Virus record (IMG/VR): IMGVR_UViG_3300035181_001319
Location: 1 to 62,841 of that record
Source: a virus
Lineage: Duplodnaviria; Caudoviricetes
Reading direction: 5' to 3' (one strand)
Length of the DNA stretch: 62,841 bases
The translations under genes and the position numbers were made by a program. Below the pieces are notes generated by a model. That model was given only the letters and a program-made list of their open reading frames with translations, was not told the DNA's origin and ran no database searches. Shown piece after piece: positions 7,784-32,683 of this stretch (position 1 is its first letter; each line of letters begins with the position of its first letter).

Positions 7784-9994
7784 CTATTTCCTATATCTTT
7801 CGCCACGCCAGCCTTCGGCATCGACCGGACAACCTGCGGCCCATCCTGGAGTTTCAGAGATGAGCAATTCAAACTCCTTGACATTGCCCTTGTCTTTATC
7901 CACTTCAGCAATCAATTCATCATGGACTGACAGGAGCACGTCATAGACCCCAGTCTCATCTGCTCGAACCATGGCCAAGGCCATCAAGTCGCGTGCTGTA
8001 GCCTGGGTGATATTTTCCACAAGCTTTCCACCATAGGTGTCTTGCATACTCCACTTTTTGGTGTATGGGTCTACAGCCCAAAACGTAATGACTGGCTTGA
8101 GCACCGGAGCACCCGTGGAGTCCTTGAAAGGCGTCTTGCGAAGTACCAGCTTGGGATACCAGTAGTGAAGCGGCTTGCCAGAAGCCAAATAGGTGCGAAG
8201 GCAAGGCTGACCTCCAATGTCTTCAACAATCCATGAATTGCGACCGCGTTTGCATTCAATCATTTGGCCTGGATTACGAATGGCCTGCACAGCCCCTTCT
8301 TCTTGGTCACGCCACATTTGCTTGACCTCAGGATAGCGGGCCCGGTACCTGTTCACGGTGAACTGCATGAGTACTAGGCTGTGCATATTCTCCCGAATGC
8401 TTAATCCCGCGTCCCGCATCCTCTTGATGCGCTTCTTGTCAGTGAGGAAATACTTCTCAATCTTCTCAACAAGCACGTCGTATTCTGGGCCGACAATCTT
8501 GCGGCACTGCTCTGGCGAGAATTCAATGTCATACTTCTTGCAGGTGAGAAGGAAGGTCACAAAGCCCATTTCAAAGCCAAGGCCAAGAATAGCTTGCTTG
8601 CCAAATTGCCGCTCAACCGGGTGGTCTTTCTTTTTGACCTTAAACCCGTAAATGCCGGTGGCCATGTCACAGTAAATGTCTTCACCCGCCCGAAACACGT
8701 TCAAAGCAGTATCATCGCCAGCGAGCCAGAAAACCACTCGGGCTTCGATAGCTGCAAAGTCTGCCACAATCAAGTCACGGCCAAGTGTTGCTGTAAGGGC
8801 CCCGCGAAGGGCAAAGGATAGGTGCTCCATGACTTCGCCAAACAAGGCTCGGATGGCATCATAGTCTTCCTCAATGATCAGCTTGCATGCCAATTCCATG
8901 AGCTTGATGTCACCACGCGGAAAGTTGTGTGGTTGCACACCCTTGCCAGCCCATCTACCAGTGCCAGCACCGTGATACATCATCAAGTCCCGCAAGCGCC
9001 AGTCCTGGGCATCAGCCCGCTCCAGCATTGCCTCATACTTGGCAGTGGAAGACCGGTTGACTTCACGTATGATATTAATTGCGGCCAGTATTTCAGCGGG
9101 CAGTTTCTTCTCAGCAAACTTGTCAAGCGTTGCGGCCTGTGTGTCCGGAAGGGCTACGCCCTGGACGTTAACCCAGTCCTTGATCTTTGCGCGCTGAGAG
9201 GCGCTAAACCCCTCACGCTCTTCATCTGGAATGCCCATAATGTCTGCCAGTTCTTCGTTCATGGCAGAGATTTCCCGGTTTCGCATTCTCAGGGCGCTGT
9301 TGACCATGGTCAGGTCACACCGAATGCCCCGAAGGTTCATATCCTGGTCCATTTGCCAGATACGAAGCTCGCCAGGAGGCAGGTCAGGCAGAAGTTCAGA
9401 GAAGGCATGCTCTGTCTCCACATCATTCATGCAATAGACCCAATTGCGCTCAAAATCCTCCACACTTTCATGCCACAGGATATGGGTTTCAGGATCAATG
9501 CCAGCATTGAGCATAGCCGCCTTTTCAAGCTTCAAAGGCTTGCGAGGCTTGCAAAGCTTGCGCATGATTTTGTTGCCCTCCATGTCCTTTTCAACAGACA
9601 TGTTCAAGGCCTTGACCGCATTTTCAAGTGACCGCGGCAGGGAATAGTACGCGGCCTTGGCCGCCGAACAGCGCCACTGCTCACGGGCAATAGGATGCCA
9701 ACCCCACAAGGGAACCATGATGTTGGTCCACATGCAATACTCAAAAAAGCGGTTGTGAGCTTCAACTAGCATGCCTGAGTCGATTGCATCCATGAGGTCT
9801 TGAGGATATGGGCTCTCTTCAATGCCTAGGTGCGCATAGCCAGGATGCCACAGTTTGGTCTTGGCGTGGCTAATTTTATAGGCAAGACACAGGGGCTTTG
9901 TGGAGGAATGCTTTGAATACAACCAAGCGCCACGGCCAATATCACAAGCCGACCTTGACTCAAAGTCTATTGTTATTTTGGGTTCATTTGTCAT
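7784..9994 (-). CDS. polA: DNA polymerase, family A, with 3'-5' exonuclease domain
   Basis: IDFESRS (ExoI), TGRWAG, ADFAAIEARV (motif A), RQFGKQAILGLGF (motif B), VHDE (motif C). Confidence 0.95.
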   Translation of the reverse strand: MTNEPKITIDFESRSACDIGRGAWLYSKHSSTKPLCLAYKISHAKTKLWHPGYAHLGIEESPYPQDLMDAIDSGMLVEAHNRFFEYCMWTNIMVPLWGWHPIAREQWRCSAAKAAYYSLPRSLENAVKALNMSVEKDMEGNKIMRKLCKPRKPLKLEKAAMLNAGIDPETHILWHESVEDFERNWVYCMNDVETEHAFSELLPDLPPGELRIWQMDQDMNLRGIRCDLTMVNSALRMRNREISAMNEELADIMGIPDEEREGFSASQRAKIKDWVNVQGVALPDTQAATLDKFAEKKLPAEILAAINIIREVNRSSTAKYEAMLERADAQDWRLRDLMMYHGAGTGRWAGKGVQPHNFPRGDIKLMELACKLIIEEDYDAIRALFGEVMEHLSFALRGALTATLGRDLIVADFAAIEARVVFWLAGDDTALNVFRAGEDIYCDMATGIYGFKVKKKDHPVERQFGKQAILGLGFEMGFVTFLLTCKKYDIEFSPEQCRKIVGPEYDVLVEKIEKYFLTDKKRIKRMRDAGLSIRENMHSLVLMQFTVNRYRARYPEVKQMWRDQEEGAVQAIRNPGQMIECKRGRNSWIVEDIGGQPCLRTYLASGKPLHYWYPKLVLRKTPFKDSTGAPVLKPVITFWAVDPYTKKWSMQDTYGGKLVENITQATARDLMALAMVRADETGVYDVLLSVHDELIAEVDKDKGNVKEFELLISETPGWAAGCPVDAEGWRGERYRK

Positions 9995-26847: not shown

Positions 26848-27333
26848 AGGTGCGTCGGTTTAGAGGTTGGTAGAGAGGGGAAACCTGACCGACGCACCTT
26901 GAGGATTGCCGACAGTAAGGGGTGCTTCCGTAAGTGTCTGTTTTTATTGCCTTTTGACTCGGCCGACCGTGAAAAACGACAAAAAGTGTTTATGATGTGT
27001 GGGCACGTGTGTGCGTATGCGTCATACATTAATTTTCATTTAAGGTAGGTCGGTATAGTCGAAGGTAGCAAAAACAGGCACTTAGACAGTTTTCAAGGTC
27101 GGCTTTCCATGGTTAAGGTGCGTCGATTTTCTTCAAGGTGCGTCGGTGGTTTTTTGCCCTTGAAGCTCTGAGACAAGCACTGGTCGATTTTTGGTATTGC
27201 TGGGTGTGGATGGTCTACCCACGCCATCAGCTCACAAGTCGCCAAAAACCCATGCTTCAAGCATGAAAAGTTGCCCACGTACACACGGCTTGTGCAAGTT
27301 AGCTAGCCGTGCGACGCACCTAAGGTGCGTCGC
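26848..27333. repeat. six AGGTGCGTCG repeats plus an inverted repeat; candidate replication origin or operator array
   Basis: Copies at 26848(+), 26890(-), 27116(+), 27136(+), 27312(-), 27323(+). Confidence 0.65.
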
Positions 27334-27346
27334 TCCAGCGTGTTGT

Positions 27347-27907
27347 TCATGCTTGGCCAGCCGGCTCTTTCGGCACTTCGGTGCTGGACTTAGCGGCTTG
27401 AGCCGCTGCAACCACTTGCTTGATCGCCGCCGGTTTCCGCCGAGCCGGGACGTTCACACCATCACGGCGCAGGTCCATCGCGATGCTGGCAACCGACCGT
27501 TCGGTCGTCTTGGCATCCCAGTAAGTGTCCCGCACCGTCTTGACGATGTCCTTGTAAGGCATTTCGGTCTGGAGCAAGTCCATCACCATCACACCGATCG
27601 CCCCACGCGGCGACTTGGGCCGGTTTGTTTCAAGGGCGACCGGCATTTCGGCCGGTTTTTCGGCACCAGTGTCCGGCTCGTCCGTGCTCGGCGCCAAGTT
27701 GGGCAGCTGCTCCGACACATCATCGTCGGCATACTGGGGATCGCTCGCCGGCGGCAAGTTCGGCTCGGCTGCTTCGGGCTCTTCGTAATACGTCTTCAGC
27801 AGCGTCTCAAGGTCCGAGCGGCTGCGCTTCCAAGAGTCAAGCGGTTGCTTGCCCTCAAGGATACGATAGCCATTCAGGTGCTGCAGCAGTTCTTTGGTCG
27901 GGATCAT
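27347..27907 (-). CDS. HTH-like paralog family protein
   Basis: AAGGAG RBS; YKDIVKTVRDTYWDAKTTERSVASIAMDLRRDG. Confidence 0.7.
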   Translation of the reverse strand: MIPTKELLQHLNGYRILEGKQPLDSWKRSRSDLETLLKTYYEEPEAAEPNLPPASDPQYADDDVSEQLPNLAPSTDEPDTGAEKPAEMPVALETNRPKSPRGAIGVMVMDLLQTEMPYKDIVKTVRDTYWDAKTTERSVASIAMDLRRDGVNVPARRKPAAIKQVVAAAQAAKSSTEVPKEPAGQA

Positions 27908-28017
27908 GACAGTCTCCTTTGGGTTGATCGTGATTTCACAGTATCACACTTTCTCAGGCTTGTGTCATTGCTTCAGTCAAACGACACAAATGTGATTGAC
28001 TGAAGCAATGTTCCATG

Positions 28018-28239
28018 CTAGTCCTGCATGAACCGCTCGAGGGCAGCAGACAGGTCTTCCACAGTGCCGTCGGGAAGCAGTCCCCACACGCGACCCCACT
28101 GGTCGGCATAGGCCTTGCCCTTGTAGTGGGGGTAGTCATTCGACTGAGCCAAGGGGCTGACCAGTCGTTGCTTGTGATCCAGCACAGTGTTCTCGTCAAG
28201 GATTTGCTTGGACCGGTCGTGGCGTTCAATGAGGTTCAT
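28018..28239 (-). CDS. hypothetical protein downstream of hammerhead 1
   Basis: GGAG RBS at the 3' end of the ribozyme repeat; MNLIERHD... Confidence 0.6.
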   Translation of the reverse strand: MNLIERHDRSKQILDENTVLDHKQRLVSPLAQSNDYPHYKGKAYADQWGRVWGLLPDGTVEDLSAALERFMQD

Positions 28240-28250
28240 GGGTCTTCTCC

Positions 28251-28316
28251 AGTGGCTTGGCATCATCAGTGTGGGGAGAGCCACTCCCGCACAGACTGGC
28301 TTACGCCAGTTTCGCC
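28251..28316 (-). ncRNA. type II hammerhead ribozyme, copy 1
   Basis: GGC-GAAA-CTGGC-GTAA-GCCAG-TC^TGTG...CACA-CTGATGA-T-GCC; pseudoknot AGTGGCT/AGCCACT. Confidence 0.85.
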
Positions 28317-28477
28317 TACTGGTTCAAATCAAGGGGACTTTCCACTTTGTGAACCAGACTGGACAGGGTGTCAAGCACCATGTCAAAGTCGGAACTTTTT
28401 GCTGCCAGCTTCATGACAGCTTGCAAGACGGTCAGTTCTTCTTGCGTGAGGTTGAGTTGAAAGGGCTCTTCATACAT
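28316..28477 (-). CDS. hypothetical protein between hammerheads 2 and 1
   Basis: GGAG RBS from the repeat; MYEEPFQLNL... Confidence 0.6.
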   Translation of the reverse strand: MYEEPFQLNLTQEELTVLQAVMKLAAKSSDFDMVLDTLSSLVHKVESPLDLNQ

Positions 28478-28488
28478 TGAAAGTCTCC

Positions 28489-28555
28489 AGTGGCTTGACA
28501 TCATCAGTGTGGGGAGAGCCACTCCCGCACAGAAGGGCTTACGCCCTTTTCGTCA
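28489..28555 (-). ncRNA. type II hammerhead ribozyme, copy 2
   Basis: TGAC-GAAA-AGGGC-GTAA-GCCCT-TC^TGTG...CACA-CTGATGA-T-GTCA; compensatory changes relative to copies 1 and 3. Confidence 0.85.
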
Positions 28556-28712
28556 GTTCAGGGAAGAGCTTGAAGACCAGCTCGTTGAAGGCCACTTCAT
28601 CGTAGTAGCCGTGGCCCAGTTCGTCGTTGTGCCAGTGGAACTCAATGAGGGTCCTCAGCACCACACACTCTTCAGGGGTAAGCCCCTCGATCAGCGAAGG
28701 ATCGTCATTCAT
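28539..28712 (-). CDS. 57-aa hypothetical protein (not in ORF track)
   Basis: MNDDPSLIEGLTPEEC...; ATGA-coupled. Its stop TAA lies in the stem III loop of hammerhead 2. Confidence 0.55.
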   Translation of the reverse strand: MNDDPSLIEGLTPEECVVLRTLIEFHWHNDELGHGYYDEVAFNELVFKLFPELTKRA

Positions 28713-28966
28713 TCCCCATACCCCTTTGCCACCAGCTGCTCATCCACTTTGAGGAACTTGCACATCTTCTTGGCTTGTGACAGGAGGATCGTGGCGTTCA
28801 CGACATGGCCCCAGTTGATGTTTGCTATCATAAGCGGGGTGTCATAGTCCAGTTTCTCGAGGACAAGGGCAAGTCGGATGCGGAGCTCATTGCTGGCCGT
28901 GTTGTAGGCTTCGTGGGCTGTGGGCTTGTCATTGAACTCGGAAATCAATTCGTCAATCTTCTTCAT
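28709..28966 (-). CDS. hypothetical protein downstream of hammerhead 3
   Basis: GGAG RBS from the repeat; MKKIDELISE... Confidence 0.6.
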   Translation of the reverse strand: MKKIDELISEFNDKPTAHEAYNTASNELRIRLALVLEKLDYDTPLMIANINWGHVVNATILLSQAKKMCKFLKVDEQLVAKGYGE

Positions 28967-28977
28967 GGGTAGTCTCC

Positions 28978-29044
28978 AGTGGCTTGGCATCATCAGTGTG
29001 GGGAGAGCCACTCCCTCACAGACTGGCTTGCGCCAGTTTCGCCA
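28978..29044 (-). ncRNA. type II hammerhead ribozyme, copy 3
   Basis: TGGC-GAAA-CTGGC-GCAA-GCCAG-TC^TGTG...CACA-CTGATGA-T-GCCA. Confidence 0.85.
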
Positions 29045-29045
29045 G

Positions 29046-29294
29046 TCATGCACTGTGTATGTTGCAGTCTTTCCACACCCCATCGGCATAGGTTTTCAGC
29101 CAGATGGAGGAGTGACGAATGGAGGGAAAACAGCCGGGCAAGTTGGAGTAGCGGGCAAACTTGACAATGCTGCCACAACCTGCAGCTTCTACCACCTGCC
29201 GCGCCTCCTCTTCGCTGGAGTAGTCTGCTTCTGCCCTTGTCTCCGCGTAGCGAAGGGGTTCATAACTCGTGACCTGATAGATGGGGGCATACAT
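29046..29294 (-). CDS. hypothetical protein
   Basis: ORF in the early operon. Confidence 0.55.
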   Translation of the reverse strand: MYAPIYQVTSYEPLRYAETRAEADYSSEEEARQVVEAAGCGSIVKFARYSNLPGCFPSIRHSSIWLKTYADGVWKDCNIHSA

Positions 29295-29306
29295 GGGGAA
29301 GGCCTT

Positions 29307-29510
29307 TCAGATAAGGGACGGGGGACCGACTTGATAGACCATGTAGTCATGCAGCCTACCAAGCCAATGGACATCGTCGTCATGGCTGTCGAGAGCCTGT
29401 GAGATACACTCGATCTCGAGGGCAAGGCACTCCTTGACTGAAAAGGGCTCCATACCCTCAATGGCCCATGTCTCCACAAGGACCCGCTCATACTTGCGTT
29501 TGTTGTCCAT
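29307..29510 (-). CDS. hypothetical protein
   Basis: ORF in the early operon. Confidence 0.5.
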   Translation of the reverse strand: MDNKRKYERVLVETWAIEGMEPFSVKECLALEIECISQALDSHDDDVHWLGRLHDYMVYQVGPPSLI

Positions 29511-29511
29511 T

Positions 29512-29778
29512 TCAGATAAGGGACAGCTGGAATTCAGGAGCTTCGAAGATGGGGAACATGGAGAGTTGGTCCTCGACAGGCTGAGAAATCACTGCCCTTG
29601 CCGAGGCAGCTGCAAGCTTGCCCGCCTTGCGAAAGTCGCGGGCCAAGGAGGCGACAGACTTGTGAGTGGTCTGCGCGGAGGGAAAGTATTCGCGAACCTT
29701 GTCTGCGATGTCTTTGTAGTCATGAGCCCCCTGCGACAGGAGATCGAGAACGCAAACGCTGATGTTACGATAGGTCAT
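29512..29778 (-). CDS. HTH-like paralog family protein
   Basis: GGAG RBS; YKDIADKVREYFPSAQTTHKSVASLARDFRKAG. Confidence 0.7.
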   Translation of the reverse strand: MTYRNISVCVLDLLSQGAHDYKDIADKVREYFPSAQTTHKSVASLARDFRKAGKLAAASARAVISQPVEDQLSMFPIFEAPEFQLSLI

Positions 29779-29837
29779 GATTGATTGCTCCACTAAAGCC
29801 CACCACCGCGGTGGGCTTAAGATATTCAACCTTTTAA

Positions 29838-30128
29838 TCAGAAGTTGACCGACTGACAGGCAACTTTGATAGATACCATTTTTCTTCTAAGGTCATCAGT
29901 CATGACTACCTGTCTAGACCAGTATGTGACTTTATTGTCACAGACCGTGATTTCTTTTTCGACTTGATAGGCTTGATCAAAGTCATCTCGGACCGAGATA
30001 GACAGTCTATCCAATAGACACCTATTCCTATAATGGTTAAGGTAAAATTGTACTATCTTGTCTTGACTTGGTACTCCTCCGGAGTATGGTTTCCTGGCTA
30101 CCCAGGAGGTATCATATATGTATGCCAT
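29838..30128 (-). CDS. hypothetical protein, first gene of the leftward arm
   Basis: AT-rich ORF. Confidence 0.55.
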   Translation of the reverse strand: MAYIYDTSWVARKPYSGGVPSQDKIVQFYLNHYRNRCLLDRLSISVRDDFDQAYQVEKEITVCDNKVTYWSRQVVMTDDLRRKMVSIKVACQSVNF

Positions 30129-30179: not shown

Positions 30180-30458
30180 TCGTTCGTATATATAAATTAG
30201 CCTGATTTCATTGCGAAGTACACACTGGCACCGGGGTCTCTGGGTGTCCTGTATGAAGGTTTTTACCTCAACTTTTCCCCAGACTTGTCAAAAAGCCCCT
30301 TGTCAAAAATAAAAATGGAAATTTGGCCTCAACTTTTCCCCAAACTGTATAACTGACAACAAGCTTAAGAACCTTGATGGCACAAAACACACCTCAAACA
30401 TTATAAGCTGATCAAGCTGACTGTCAAACATCCAAAAACCGGCAAAGGTTACACACGC
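30180..30458. promoter_or_regulatory. divergent AT-rich intergenic region with direct repeats; candidate packaging/terminus and late promoter region
   Basis: CCTCAACTTTTCCCCA at 30266 and 30327; CTTGTCAAAAA twice; point of strand switch. Confidence 0.5.
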
Positions 30459-32125: not shown

Positions 32126-32683
32126 ATGCGGCTTTCTGTTGACAAGCGTGACAAGGGCTATCGGTTCGACCTGGTCAAGAACAAGTGTGTGATCTATTTC
32201 AACGACCAGGCCAGGACCGATGTGATCACGGCCGACGAAGAAGAGGGGATGATTATCACCTATGTCCCCGACGTCGAAAATGGTGGAAAGCCCAAAATCA
32301 ATGAAGAGAAGACGGCCTACTTGACCCAGATCCATCGTGGGCGCGTCCGCATTGAGATCAATGATGCTGAAGGCTGCAGTATCAAGGACCCCAAGGTCAA
32401 GGCTGAGCTTGAAGATCGTGGCATCCTGATGCTGATCTATTCCAAGATGCAACCCGGGAACATTCGGCGGATGCTGGTCGAACGCAAGGCCTTCCCTGAT
32501 GAGCAGACCATGCTTTTGGCCTGTGAAGCTGCTACGGGCGCAGCAGCCGAGTATTGCTGCAACATGCATGGAGATGTCTTTGAGCCCAAAGAGGTTGCAG
32601 AGGCAGGTCTTGAAGCTGCGCGGAAGCTGCTTGCCGGCGCAAACAAGCTGCTGGCTTCCGCAGTTCGGACCACACGGCACTAA
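32126..32683 (+). CDS. hypothetical protein
   Basis: GAGGAG RBS. Confidence 0.6.
   Translation: MRLSVDKRDKGYRFDLVKNKCVIYFNDQARTDVITADEEEGMIITYVPDVENGGKPKINEEKTAYLTQIHRGRVRIEINDAEGCSIKDPKVKAELEDRGILMLIYSKMQPGNIRRMLVERKAFPDEQTMLLACEAATGAAAEYCCNMHGDVFEPKEVAEAGLEAARKLLAGANKLLASAVRTTRH

Follow-up and report, generated by a model that had tools for sequence, protein, structure and literature searches.

Three tandem type II hammerhead ribozyme motifs packed between stop codons and Shine-Dalgarno sequences in a putative small-gene operon of an uncultivated tailed phage

Type II hammerhead ribozymes in which loop I forms a pseudoknot with the downstream tail were described by Perreault et al. (2011; PMC3088659), the pseudoknot being required for fast cleavage of this type (PMC3088659), and the crystal structure of one pseudoknot hammerhead is available (PMC11300833). 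In prophages, multiple hammerheads can surround single genes or small groups of them; three such tandem arrangements cleave in vitro, one of them also in Escherichia coli, and it has been suggested that the transcripts of such clusters are processed into mRNAs of gene length (PMC3088659). Cistron processing is the standard suggestion of the field (PMC3088659; PMC6765202), and the roles of bacterial and phage self-cleaving ribozymes are called largely elusive (PMC6765202). In Desulfovibrio vulgaris, three type II hammerheads near phage-like genes were cleaved in vivo according to cyPhyRNA-seq (Olzog et al., 2021; PMC8782182). Here, three tandem repeats of this ribozyme type are analyzed in the IMG/VR virus record IMGVR_UViG_3300035181_001319 (Duplodnaviria; Caudoviricetes). 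The window, i.e. the whole stretch of 62,841 nucleotides (nt), is the entire record, is rated 100% complete and has 54% G+C. Its assignment to a tailed phage is based on protein matches to terminase, DNA polymerase, primase and minor tail protein; helicase, exonuclease and ribonucleotide reductase are encoded in addition, and the genome that carries the ribozymes is apparently that of an uncultivated 62.8-kb phage of lytic type. The best explanation, to which we assign a probability of about 80%, is that the repeats are three genuine type II pseudoknot hammerheads in the intergenic gaps of one phage operon of small genes. The arrangement as such is already known from other phages, and what is added is a modest regularity, the exact packing from stop codon to Shine-Dalgarno (SD) sequence, which is shared by roughly half of the 136 phage type II hammerheads in one sample and by most in the other.

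An earlier note on this DNA, made from the sequence without database searches, had described three minus-strand repeats of about 67 nt as type II hammerheads. The repeats lie where it placed them, at 29044-28978 (hammerhead 1), 28555-28489 (hammerhead 2) and 28317-28251 (hammerhead 3), with the start of the third copy set at 28317 by alignment to the other two. Direct reading of each copy bears out the order of stems and core elements given there, which is, from 5' to 3', a stem II strand of 3-4 nt, GAAA, stem III, UC, stem I, CUGAUGA, a single U and the 3' strand of stem II. Stem III comprises 6 bp including the A15.1-U16.1 pair and is capped by a GNRA tetraloop (GCAA or GUAA), and stem I consists of 9 bp with a 1-nt bulge and the loop UGGCU in each copy. 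In all three copies the tail AGCCACU is complementary to the loop I region AGUGGCU, and GGAG follows directly 3' of the tail. The conserved core (C3-U4-G5-A6-N7-G8-A9; G12-A13-A14; A15.1-U16.1) is present in every copy, with one U inserted after A9. The copies are identical from stem I through GGAG except for the bulged base, and their alignment confirms that the two remaining stems differ by compensation, stem III reading CUGGC/GCCAG or AGGGC/GCCCU and stem II reading UGGC/GCCA or UGAC/GUCA; in copy 3, stem II is only 3 bp long because its outer position is an A.A. The NUH cleavage triplets GUC, UUC and GUC end at 29021, 28532 and 28294, respectively. Hand arithmetic reproduces the cuts that had been predicted from them, at 29021/29020, 28532/28531 and 28294/28293, as well as the resulting units of 489 and 238 nt.

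A scan of the whole window against 4227 Rfam families recovers copy 3 (28250-28317) as RF02276 Hammerhead_II with 37.4 bits (E 5.3e-4), above the gathering score of 37 bits, and copy 1 (28977-29044) with 35.5 bits (E 1.7e-3). Copy 2 (28489-28555) reaches 28.7 bits and is seen only on searching a stretch of 251 nt, not in the whole-window listing. The comparison with Rfam hammerhead models that the earlier note had proposed thus carries one copy over the threshold and leaves two below it, a shortfall that is put down to the U insertion, to the shortness of the GNRA-capped stem III and, for copy 2, to its altered stems. Minimum free energy (MFE) and centroid folds calculated with ViennaRNA for all three 72-nt elements yield the type II three-way junction, in which loops cap stems I and III and stem II is open; the MFE values are -27.3, -25.1 and -26.2 kcal/mol for hammerheads 1 to 3, and GGAG is unpaired in the MFE fold of each element. 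A covariance model of our own, run with filters off, found no fourth copy in the whole window. A match of 14 bits at 32476-32512 on the plus strand (E 0.16) was set aside as chance. Other ribozyme classes were found neither in the window (Rfam, E up to 5) nor in 11 related loci at gathering score.

Several direct searches for relatives remained empty: blastn of positions 27900-29400 against 50,697 deposited phage records gave no match, 23 bases of the ribozyme 3' half used as an exact pattern had 0 matches in viral contigs, and a 440-amino acid (aa) and a 186-aa protein used as single queries led to no confirmed relative. The terminase as query retrieved 80 related loci, and a pattern composed of the loop I, core and tail of the window copies was found at 17 places in 16 viral contigs, 15 of which are complete type II hammerheads. 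The covariance model, built from the window copies and 14 rows from other viral contigs, identified 48 hammerheads in 1.04 Mb of related loci, the three window copies included (sample 1). A further 88 (sample 2) were drawn by a pattern that leaves the pseudoknot free. Independently, Rfam called 26 hammerhead II elements at gathering score in 11 of the loci. In the alignment of the 48 rows, 47 of them distinct, standard pairs fill 94.0% of the cells, and for 19 of 24 pairs both partners have changed; none of 500 column shuffles matched any of the five covariation measures, and controls with slid partners pair at 33-46%. Pairing amounts to 94.7% in stem I, 84.2% in stem II and 99.3% in stem III, with changes on both sides in 16 of the 19 stem pairs, figures that lean toward the model because the model was fitted to these nested stems. 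The aligned hammerheads all share an unchanged catalytic core.

The pseudoknot was left out of the covariance model, and its five central pairs are 94.2% paired among the 48 hammerheads, three of the five having changed on both sides, with the limit that about one third of the rows had been picked using the window's own pseudoknot sequence. Of the 7-bp pseudoknot claimed earlier, these five pairs stand (94% paired), and the UGGCU/AGCCA pairing is available in all three window copies. The outer two pairs are weakly supported: pair 6 forms in 26 of 42 rows and pair 7 in 11 of 40, each in competition with the uppermost part of stem I. In the window, an extension to 7 bp is possible at the cost of two stem I pairs. 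Rfam matches, MFE folds and family-wide covariation together uphold the type II identity that had been read from the repeats, and the three elements are almost certainly true hammerheads.

The inserted core base requires separate consideration, since it could indicate decayed or inactive look-alikes that are disabled by the extra U, a reading to which an insertion in the core and two scores below the Rfam threshold lend some color. All conserved core bases are kept, however, and the insertion occupies the one position known to be tolerant: an extra base between A9 and G10.1 is a known and tolerated core insertion (PMC3705267, citing De la Pena and Flores 2001), and a viroid hammerhead with a U inserted there cleaved 3-4-fold faster (PMC3705267). 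The same insertion recurs in 7 of the 48 hammerheads of sample 1 and in 14 of the 88 of sample 2, and 17 of these 21 bases are a U. Additionally, the compensatory changes between the window copies keep their stems intact. Decay is accordingly very improbable, and the extra U is, as had been stated, a core variant.

Each window ribozyme fills the gap from an upstream stop codon to a GGAG-N7-ATG start, all on the minus strand. An open reading frame (ORF) of 82 aa (29046-29294), which has no Pfam or PHROG match, terminates with TGA at 29048-29046, 1 nt before hammerhead 1. The pseudoknot tail of this ribozyme (28984-28978) adjoins the GGAG of gene A (28974-28977), which stands 7 nt from the ATG, and the same layout occurs at 28485-28488 and 28247-28250. 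Gene A (28709-28966) encodes an 85-aa ORFan and shares an ATGA overlap with gene B (28539-28712; 57 aa), the 3' end of which lies inside hammerhead 2. Gene B runs 17 nt into this ribozyme, where its last five codons and TAA (28539-28555) double as stem II strand, GAAA and the 5' arm and loop of stem III; the TAA forms the last three bases of the GUAA loop. After a cut in hammerhead 2, the gene B stop would stand 7 nt from the 3' end. Gene C (28316-28477), a 53-aa ORFan, ends in a TAG that overlaps the first bases of hammerhead 3, and gene D (28018-28239), a 73-aa ORFan taken from the ORF list, follows.

The same packing was measured in both samples as the distance from stem II to the next SD-preceded start and from the hammerhead 5' end to the stop of the upstream frame, using a crude gene call (minimum ORF length 35 aa, SD-like word required) and random positions in the same loci for comparison; no rows were dropped, and two rows of sample 1 are identical contigs. 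A start codon with SD lies 12-40 nt past stem II for 43 of 48 hammerheads in sample 1 (random 9.5%) and 64 of 88 in sample 2 (random 8.2%). An upstream stop within -20 to +17 is found for 46/48 (random 21.6%) and 66/88 (random 18.5%), and both features together for 41/48 (random 2.8%) and 47/88 (random 1.7%). A narrower interval, -6 to +4 around the hammerhead 5' end, contains the stop for 39/48 and 54/88 hammerheads, and overlaps as deep as that of gene B (stop at +16 to +27) are present in 8 of the 88 hammerheads of sample 2. An earlier round of packing counts gave a like picture. In a full-text literature search of a limited collection, no description of a natural coupling of hammerhead and SD, or of stop-ribozyme-SD packing in phages, was found. 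The terms 'Shine-Dalgarno', 'ribosome binding' and 'translation' are absent from the main text of PMC3088659, the supplementary gene-context figures of which were outside the scope of this search.

Such positions would also suit a conditional switch, in which upstream translation and ribozyme folding tune cleavage and access to the SD of the next gene. With the stop placed at the 5' part of the ribozyme or within it, stems II and III would be opened by a ribosome that terminates there. The stops located 1 nt before hammerhead 1, inside the stem III loop of hammerhead 2 and across the first bases of hammerhead 3 are in line with this idea, as are their narrow distribution around the 5' end in both samples, the SD abutting the pseudoknot tail and the alternative GGAGA/UCUCC pairing that appears in two predicted product folds. 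On the other hand, this evidence is purely positional, the packing may be compaction, and fast co-transcriptional cleavage would come before the ribosome, so that a switch appears quite unlikely.

The related loci bear on another alternative, namely that the hammerheads are real and act mainly at the DNA level, either as recombination points that shuffle small accessory genes between phages, each point being a near-identical 70-nt cassette that brings an SD to a gene border, or as selfish modules that spread, with cleavage as a secondary property. The three window copies share 47 consecutive identical bases. In locus L094, a hammerhead differs from copy 1 at only 4 of 72 bases (94% identical), which comprise a compensatory stem III pair, the bulge and the inserted base, while the adjoining protein is just 42% identical over 72 aa to that of gene A; this homologue is located directly upstream of the ribozyme there, on the other side than in the window. 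The closest terminase relative, L005 (76% identity), carries two hammerheads at the syntenic place, between homologues of the genes for the 440-aa and 186-aa proteins, and the small genes between them are not recognisably homologous. Among the 14 terminase relatives with a full 10-kb upstream flank, hammerheads occur in one, the covariance model finding none in the other 13. Genes flanked by clustered hammerheads are also variable in the described cases (PMC3088659). A DNA-level role would not alone, however, maintain three stems and a pseudoknot, yet 19 of the 24 pairs covary and the catalytic core does not change. As the main role it is therefore unlikely, and since the two are not mutually exclusive, it can coexist with RNA cleavage.

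Arrays of hammerheads are common in the related loci, and some of them are long, with 10 copies in L093 (8.2 kb), 9 in L095 and 6 in L087 (plus 2 by Rfam) in sample 1, and 8 copies in L166 (6.1 kb) and 7 in L157 in sample 2. The copies of an array are on the same strand, spaced 0.3-1.2 kb apart, with approximately one ribozyme per one or two genes. Near the array of L095, a separate Rfam match to transfer-messenger RNA (8830-8911, minus strand; 58 bits) spans only 82 nt and could stem from a tRNA-like fragment or belong to an attachment site. For the window itself, no RNA run was among the sequencing runs listed as containing the sequence, and contigs of four DNA runs that cover 27900-29400 contain 31 variant places, none of them within the 201 ribozyme bases. 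This lack is not counted as constraint, because contigs break at repeats and the ribozymes are covered by short collapsed pieces. In contigs of two of these runs (X3 and X4), 10 bases are missing at 28007, between gene D and the 186-aa gene; this appears to be a strain-level indel.

The genes around the ribozymes, which are small and have ribosome-binding sites of the GGAG type, can be combined into a single putative operon on the minus strand. A promoter-like site TTGACA-N16-TATAAT at 30400-30427 agrees with the sigma-70 consensus at 12 of 12 positions and represents the candidate operon start. It lies 1.35 kb upstream of the ribozymes on the same strand and is the only perfect TTGACA-N16-TATAAT on both strands of the 62,841 bases; none of 100 shuffles contained one. 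The first gene behind it encodes 96 aa (29838-30128; no PHROG match), followed by an 88-aa ORF (29512-29778) with GGAG upstream and a weak match to phrog_34102 (unknown function; E 4.4e-4), a 67-aa ORF from the ORF list (29307-29510; no PHROG match), the 82-aa ORF and genes A to D. The last gene of the unit encodes the 186-aa protein (27347-27907), which is 41% identical over 180 aa (tblastn) to a product of L005 that is likewise located after a hammerhead. A terminator-like hairpin with a T run at 27249-27267, obtained by consensus scan only, marks the candidate operon end. Together, the promoter-like site and the terminator-like hairpin suggest one unit of about 3.1 kb that is probably read by the host polymerase, and the label of an 'early' operon, which the earlier note had applied, is plausible. 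Pfam gave nothing for the ten proteins tested (genes A-D and neighbors), and PHROGs gave weak matches of unknown function for three of the ten.

The plus strand of the same region contains ORFs of 112-160 aa that run antisense to the operon and through the ribozymes (28015-29784), and a naive gene call by longest ORF picks these over the minus-strand genes. No PHROG match was obtained for the five long plus-strand ORFs across the region. They are probably shadow ORFs, since minus-strand homologues of gene A and of the 186-aa gene exist in other loci. In the leader between promoter and first gene (30266-30341, minus strand), two kinds of repeats were observed: GGGGAAAAGTTGAGG occurs at 30341-30327 and 30280-30266, and TTTTTGACAAG at 30309-30299 and 30294-30284. 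Both may represent operator or extra promoter elements. At the other end, between the 186-aa gene and the terminator-like hairpin, a perfect 10-bp inverted repeat, GCGACGCACC / GGTGCGTCGC, is present at 27311-27333, one arm of which recurs at 990-999.

For the preferred reading of the three elements as self-cleaving ribozymes of one operon, the following course is proposed. The host RNA polymerase probably starts at the consensus promoter (30427-30400), and each element of about 67 nt would fold as it emerges, forming the hairpins of stem III and stem I, then closing stem II, with the pseudoknot docking stems I and II. Self-cleavage would take place 3' of C17 at the three predicted sites, so that the operon RNA of about 3.1 kb would be split into four pieces: the four upstream genes, A and B (489 nt), C (238 nt), and D with the 186-aa gene. 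Each upstream piece would end in a stem III hairpin with a 2',3'-cyclic phosphate, and each downstream piece would carry its 5'-OH on the stem I hairpin and pseudoknot, with GGAG and the start codon coming directly after them. RNA ends of this kind should slow 3' exonucleases as well as the 5'-end-dependent RNase E or RNase J. With decay slowed in this way, the pieces could have separate lifetimes and a leader that is independent of the upstream sequence. The likely purpose would be the separation of cistrons without host enzymes, providing each piece with its own stability and a context-insulated ribosome-binding site. A combined processing and ribosome-binding cassette fits the context statistics, and this functional interpretation, drawn from gene context, is reasonable; a selected role in giving the pieces different stability or translation is slightly favored.

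The chemistry of these ends leads to a further alternative, in which pairs of hammerheads release RNAs that are joined into circular, exonuclease-resistant mRNAs, either by a host ligase of the RtcB type or through hammerhead-catalysed ligation. RtcB uses 5'-OH and 2',3'-cyclic phosphate ends as carried by hammerhead products, which suits this scenario, and the units are short (489 and 238 nt), each with its own SD. In contrast, the phage itself has no genes for RtcB (PF01139) or RNA ligase (PF09414), and a chimeric hammerhead at the circle junction would be mismatched in stem II (UGAC with GCCA; AGGC with GUCA). In addition, spliced or circular products from such clusters were sought and none was detected, a result given as data not shown (PMC3088659). 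The circularization considered in the earlier note is thus without support, and circular mRNAs from this locus are highly improbable.

Several points weigh against our interpretation of the locus as an operon processed by three active ribozymes. Two of three copies score below the Rfam gathering score (35.5 and 28.7 versus 37), and the folding z-scores are modest, at -1.6 to -1.7. Within the window, stem I, core and tail are identical in the three copies, which need not be due to selection and could have come about by a recent duplication or by gene conversion. When the 3' products of copies 2 and 3 are folded together with the next 40 nt downstream, in a prediction that ignores the pseudoknot, GGAGA pairs with UCUCC of stem I, so that the SD may not always be free. 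The tight packing may be simple compaction of a phage genome, and the counts that describe it depend on the crude gene call and, for sample 1, on a search seeded with the pseudoknot sequence of the window. For promoter and terminator, the evidence consists of consensus matches. Finally, self-cleavage of the hammerheads in this phage, while very probable, is a deduction from sequence.

Taken singly, the locus is one more case of a described arrangement and changes little. The earlier note overstates the novelty of its processing reading, since the suggestion of processing together with a ribosome-binding site is already standard (PMC3088659; PMC6765202). The locus does constitute a clean and compact test case: its three near-identical ribozymes show compensatory variation of natural origin, one consensus promoter and a likely terminator are present, and the flanked genes are very short. 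The packing gives a testable form to the purpose of bacterial and phage self-cleaving ribozymes, i.e. cistron separation with an insulated ribosome-binding site. A bolder generalization, tentative and on balance doubtful, is that hammerhead and SD constitute a portable and self-contained phage intergenic cassette of about 75 nt that provides an mRNA 3' end, a protected and structured 5'-OH leader, an insulated ribosome-binding site and the coupling of cistrons. With the stop in the 5' strand of the ribozyme and the SD abutting the pseudoknot, such a cassette would couple termination to cleavage and initiation. If this holds, phages would possess a natural equivalent of the synthetic insulators made from ribozymes, and arrays of up to 10 copies would free accessory-gene operons from host RNases and ease their shuffling.

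Two systems outside the type II family provide functional parallels. The early transcript of phage T7 is cut between cistrons by host RNase III at hairpins, yielding separate mRNAs with structured ends. The working of the window elements is most likely similar, with the difference that the cuts would be made by the RNA itself, 5'-OH and cyclic-phosphate ends being the result. RiboJ is an engineered insulator derived from a type III hammerhead, with an added hairpin, that is placed upstream of a ribosome-binding site. Likewise, the ribosome-binding sites of the window would stand behind a fixed, short and structured 5' end after removal of the upstream RNA, whereas the elements themselves are natural, belong to type II and would also form the 3' end of the preceding mRNA. 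Among the natural systems, the described type II hammerheads (RF02276; PMC3088659) share with the window copies the topology, the core, the loop I-tail pseudoknot with its UGG/CCA center and a stem II of 3-4 bp; the window copies deviate by the extra U between A9 and stem II, and two of them remain just under the family threshold. The hammerheads of D. vulgaris are of the same type and occupy a phage-like neighborhood, where two of them are also about 250 nt apart, but these are chromosomal and their ends were mapped experimentally (PMC8782182), while cleavage of the window copies is predicted. A further resemblance is to the prophage clusters, such as the ardA triple of Agrobacterium tumefaciens and those of Azorhizobium caulinodans and Clostridium scindens, in which hammerheads on the same strand are one or two genes apart and the flanked genes are likewise variable and mostly of unknown function (PMC3088659). 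The window follows this clustered pattern, its minus-strand copies being parted by two genes (A and B) and by one gene (C). It differs from these clusters in that the phage is apparently of lytic type rather than an annotated prophage and that all copies are near-identical and of type II, and the arrays of the related viral contigs are far denser than the triple arrangements of the 2011 paper (PMC3088659).

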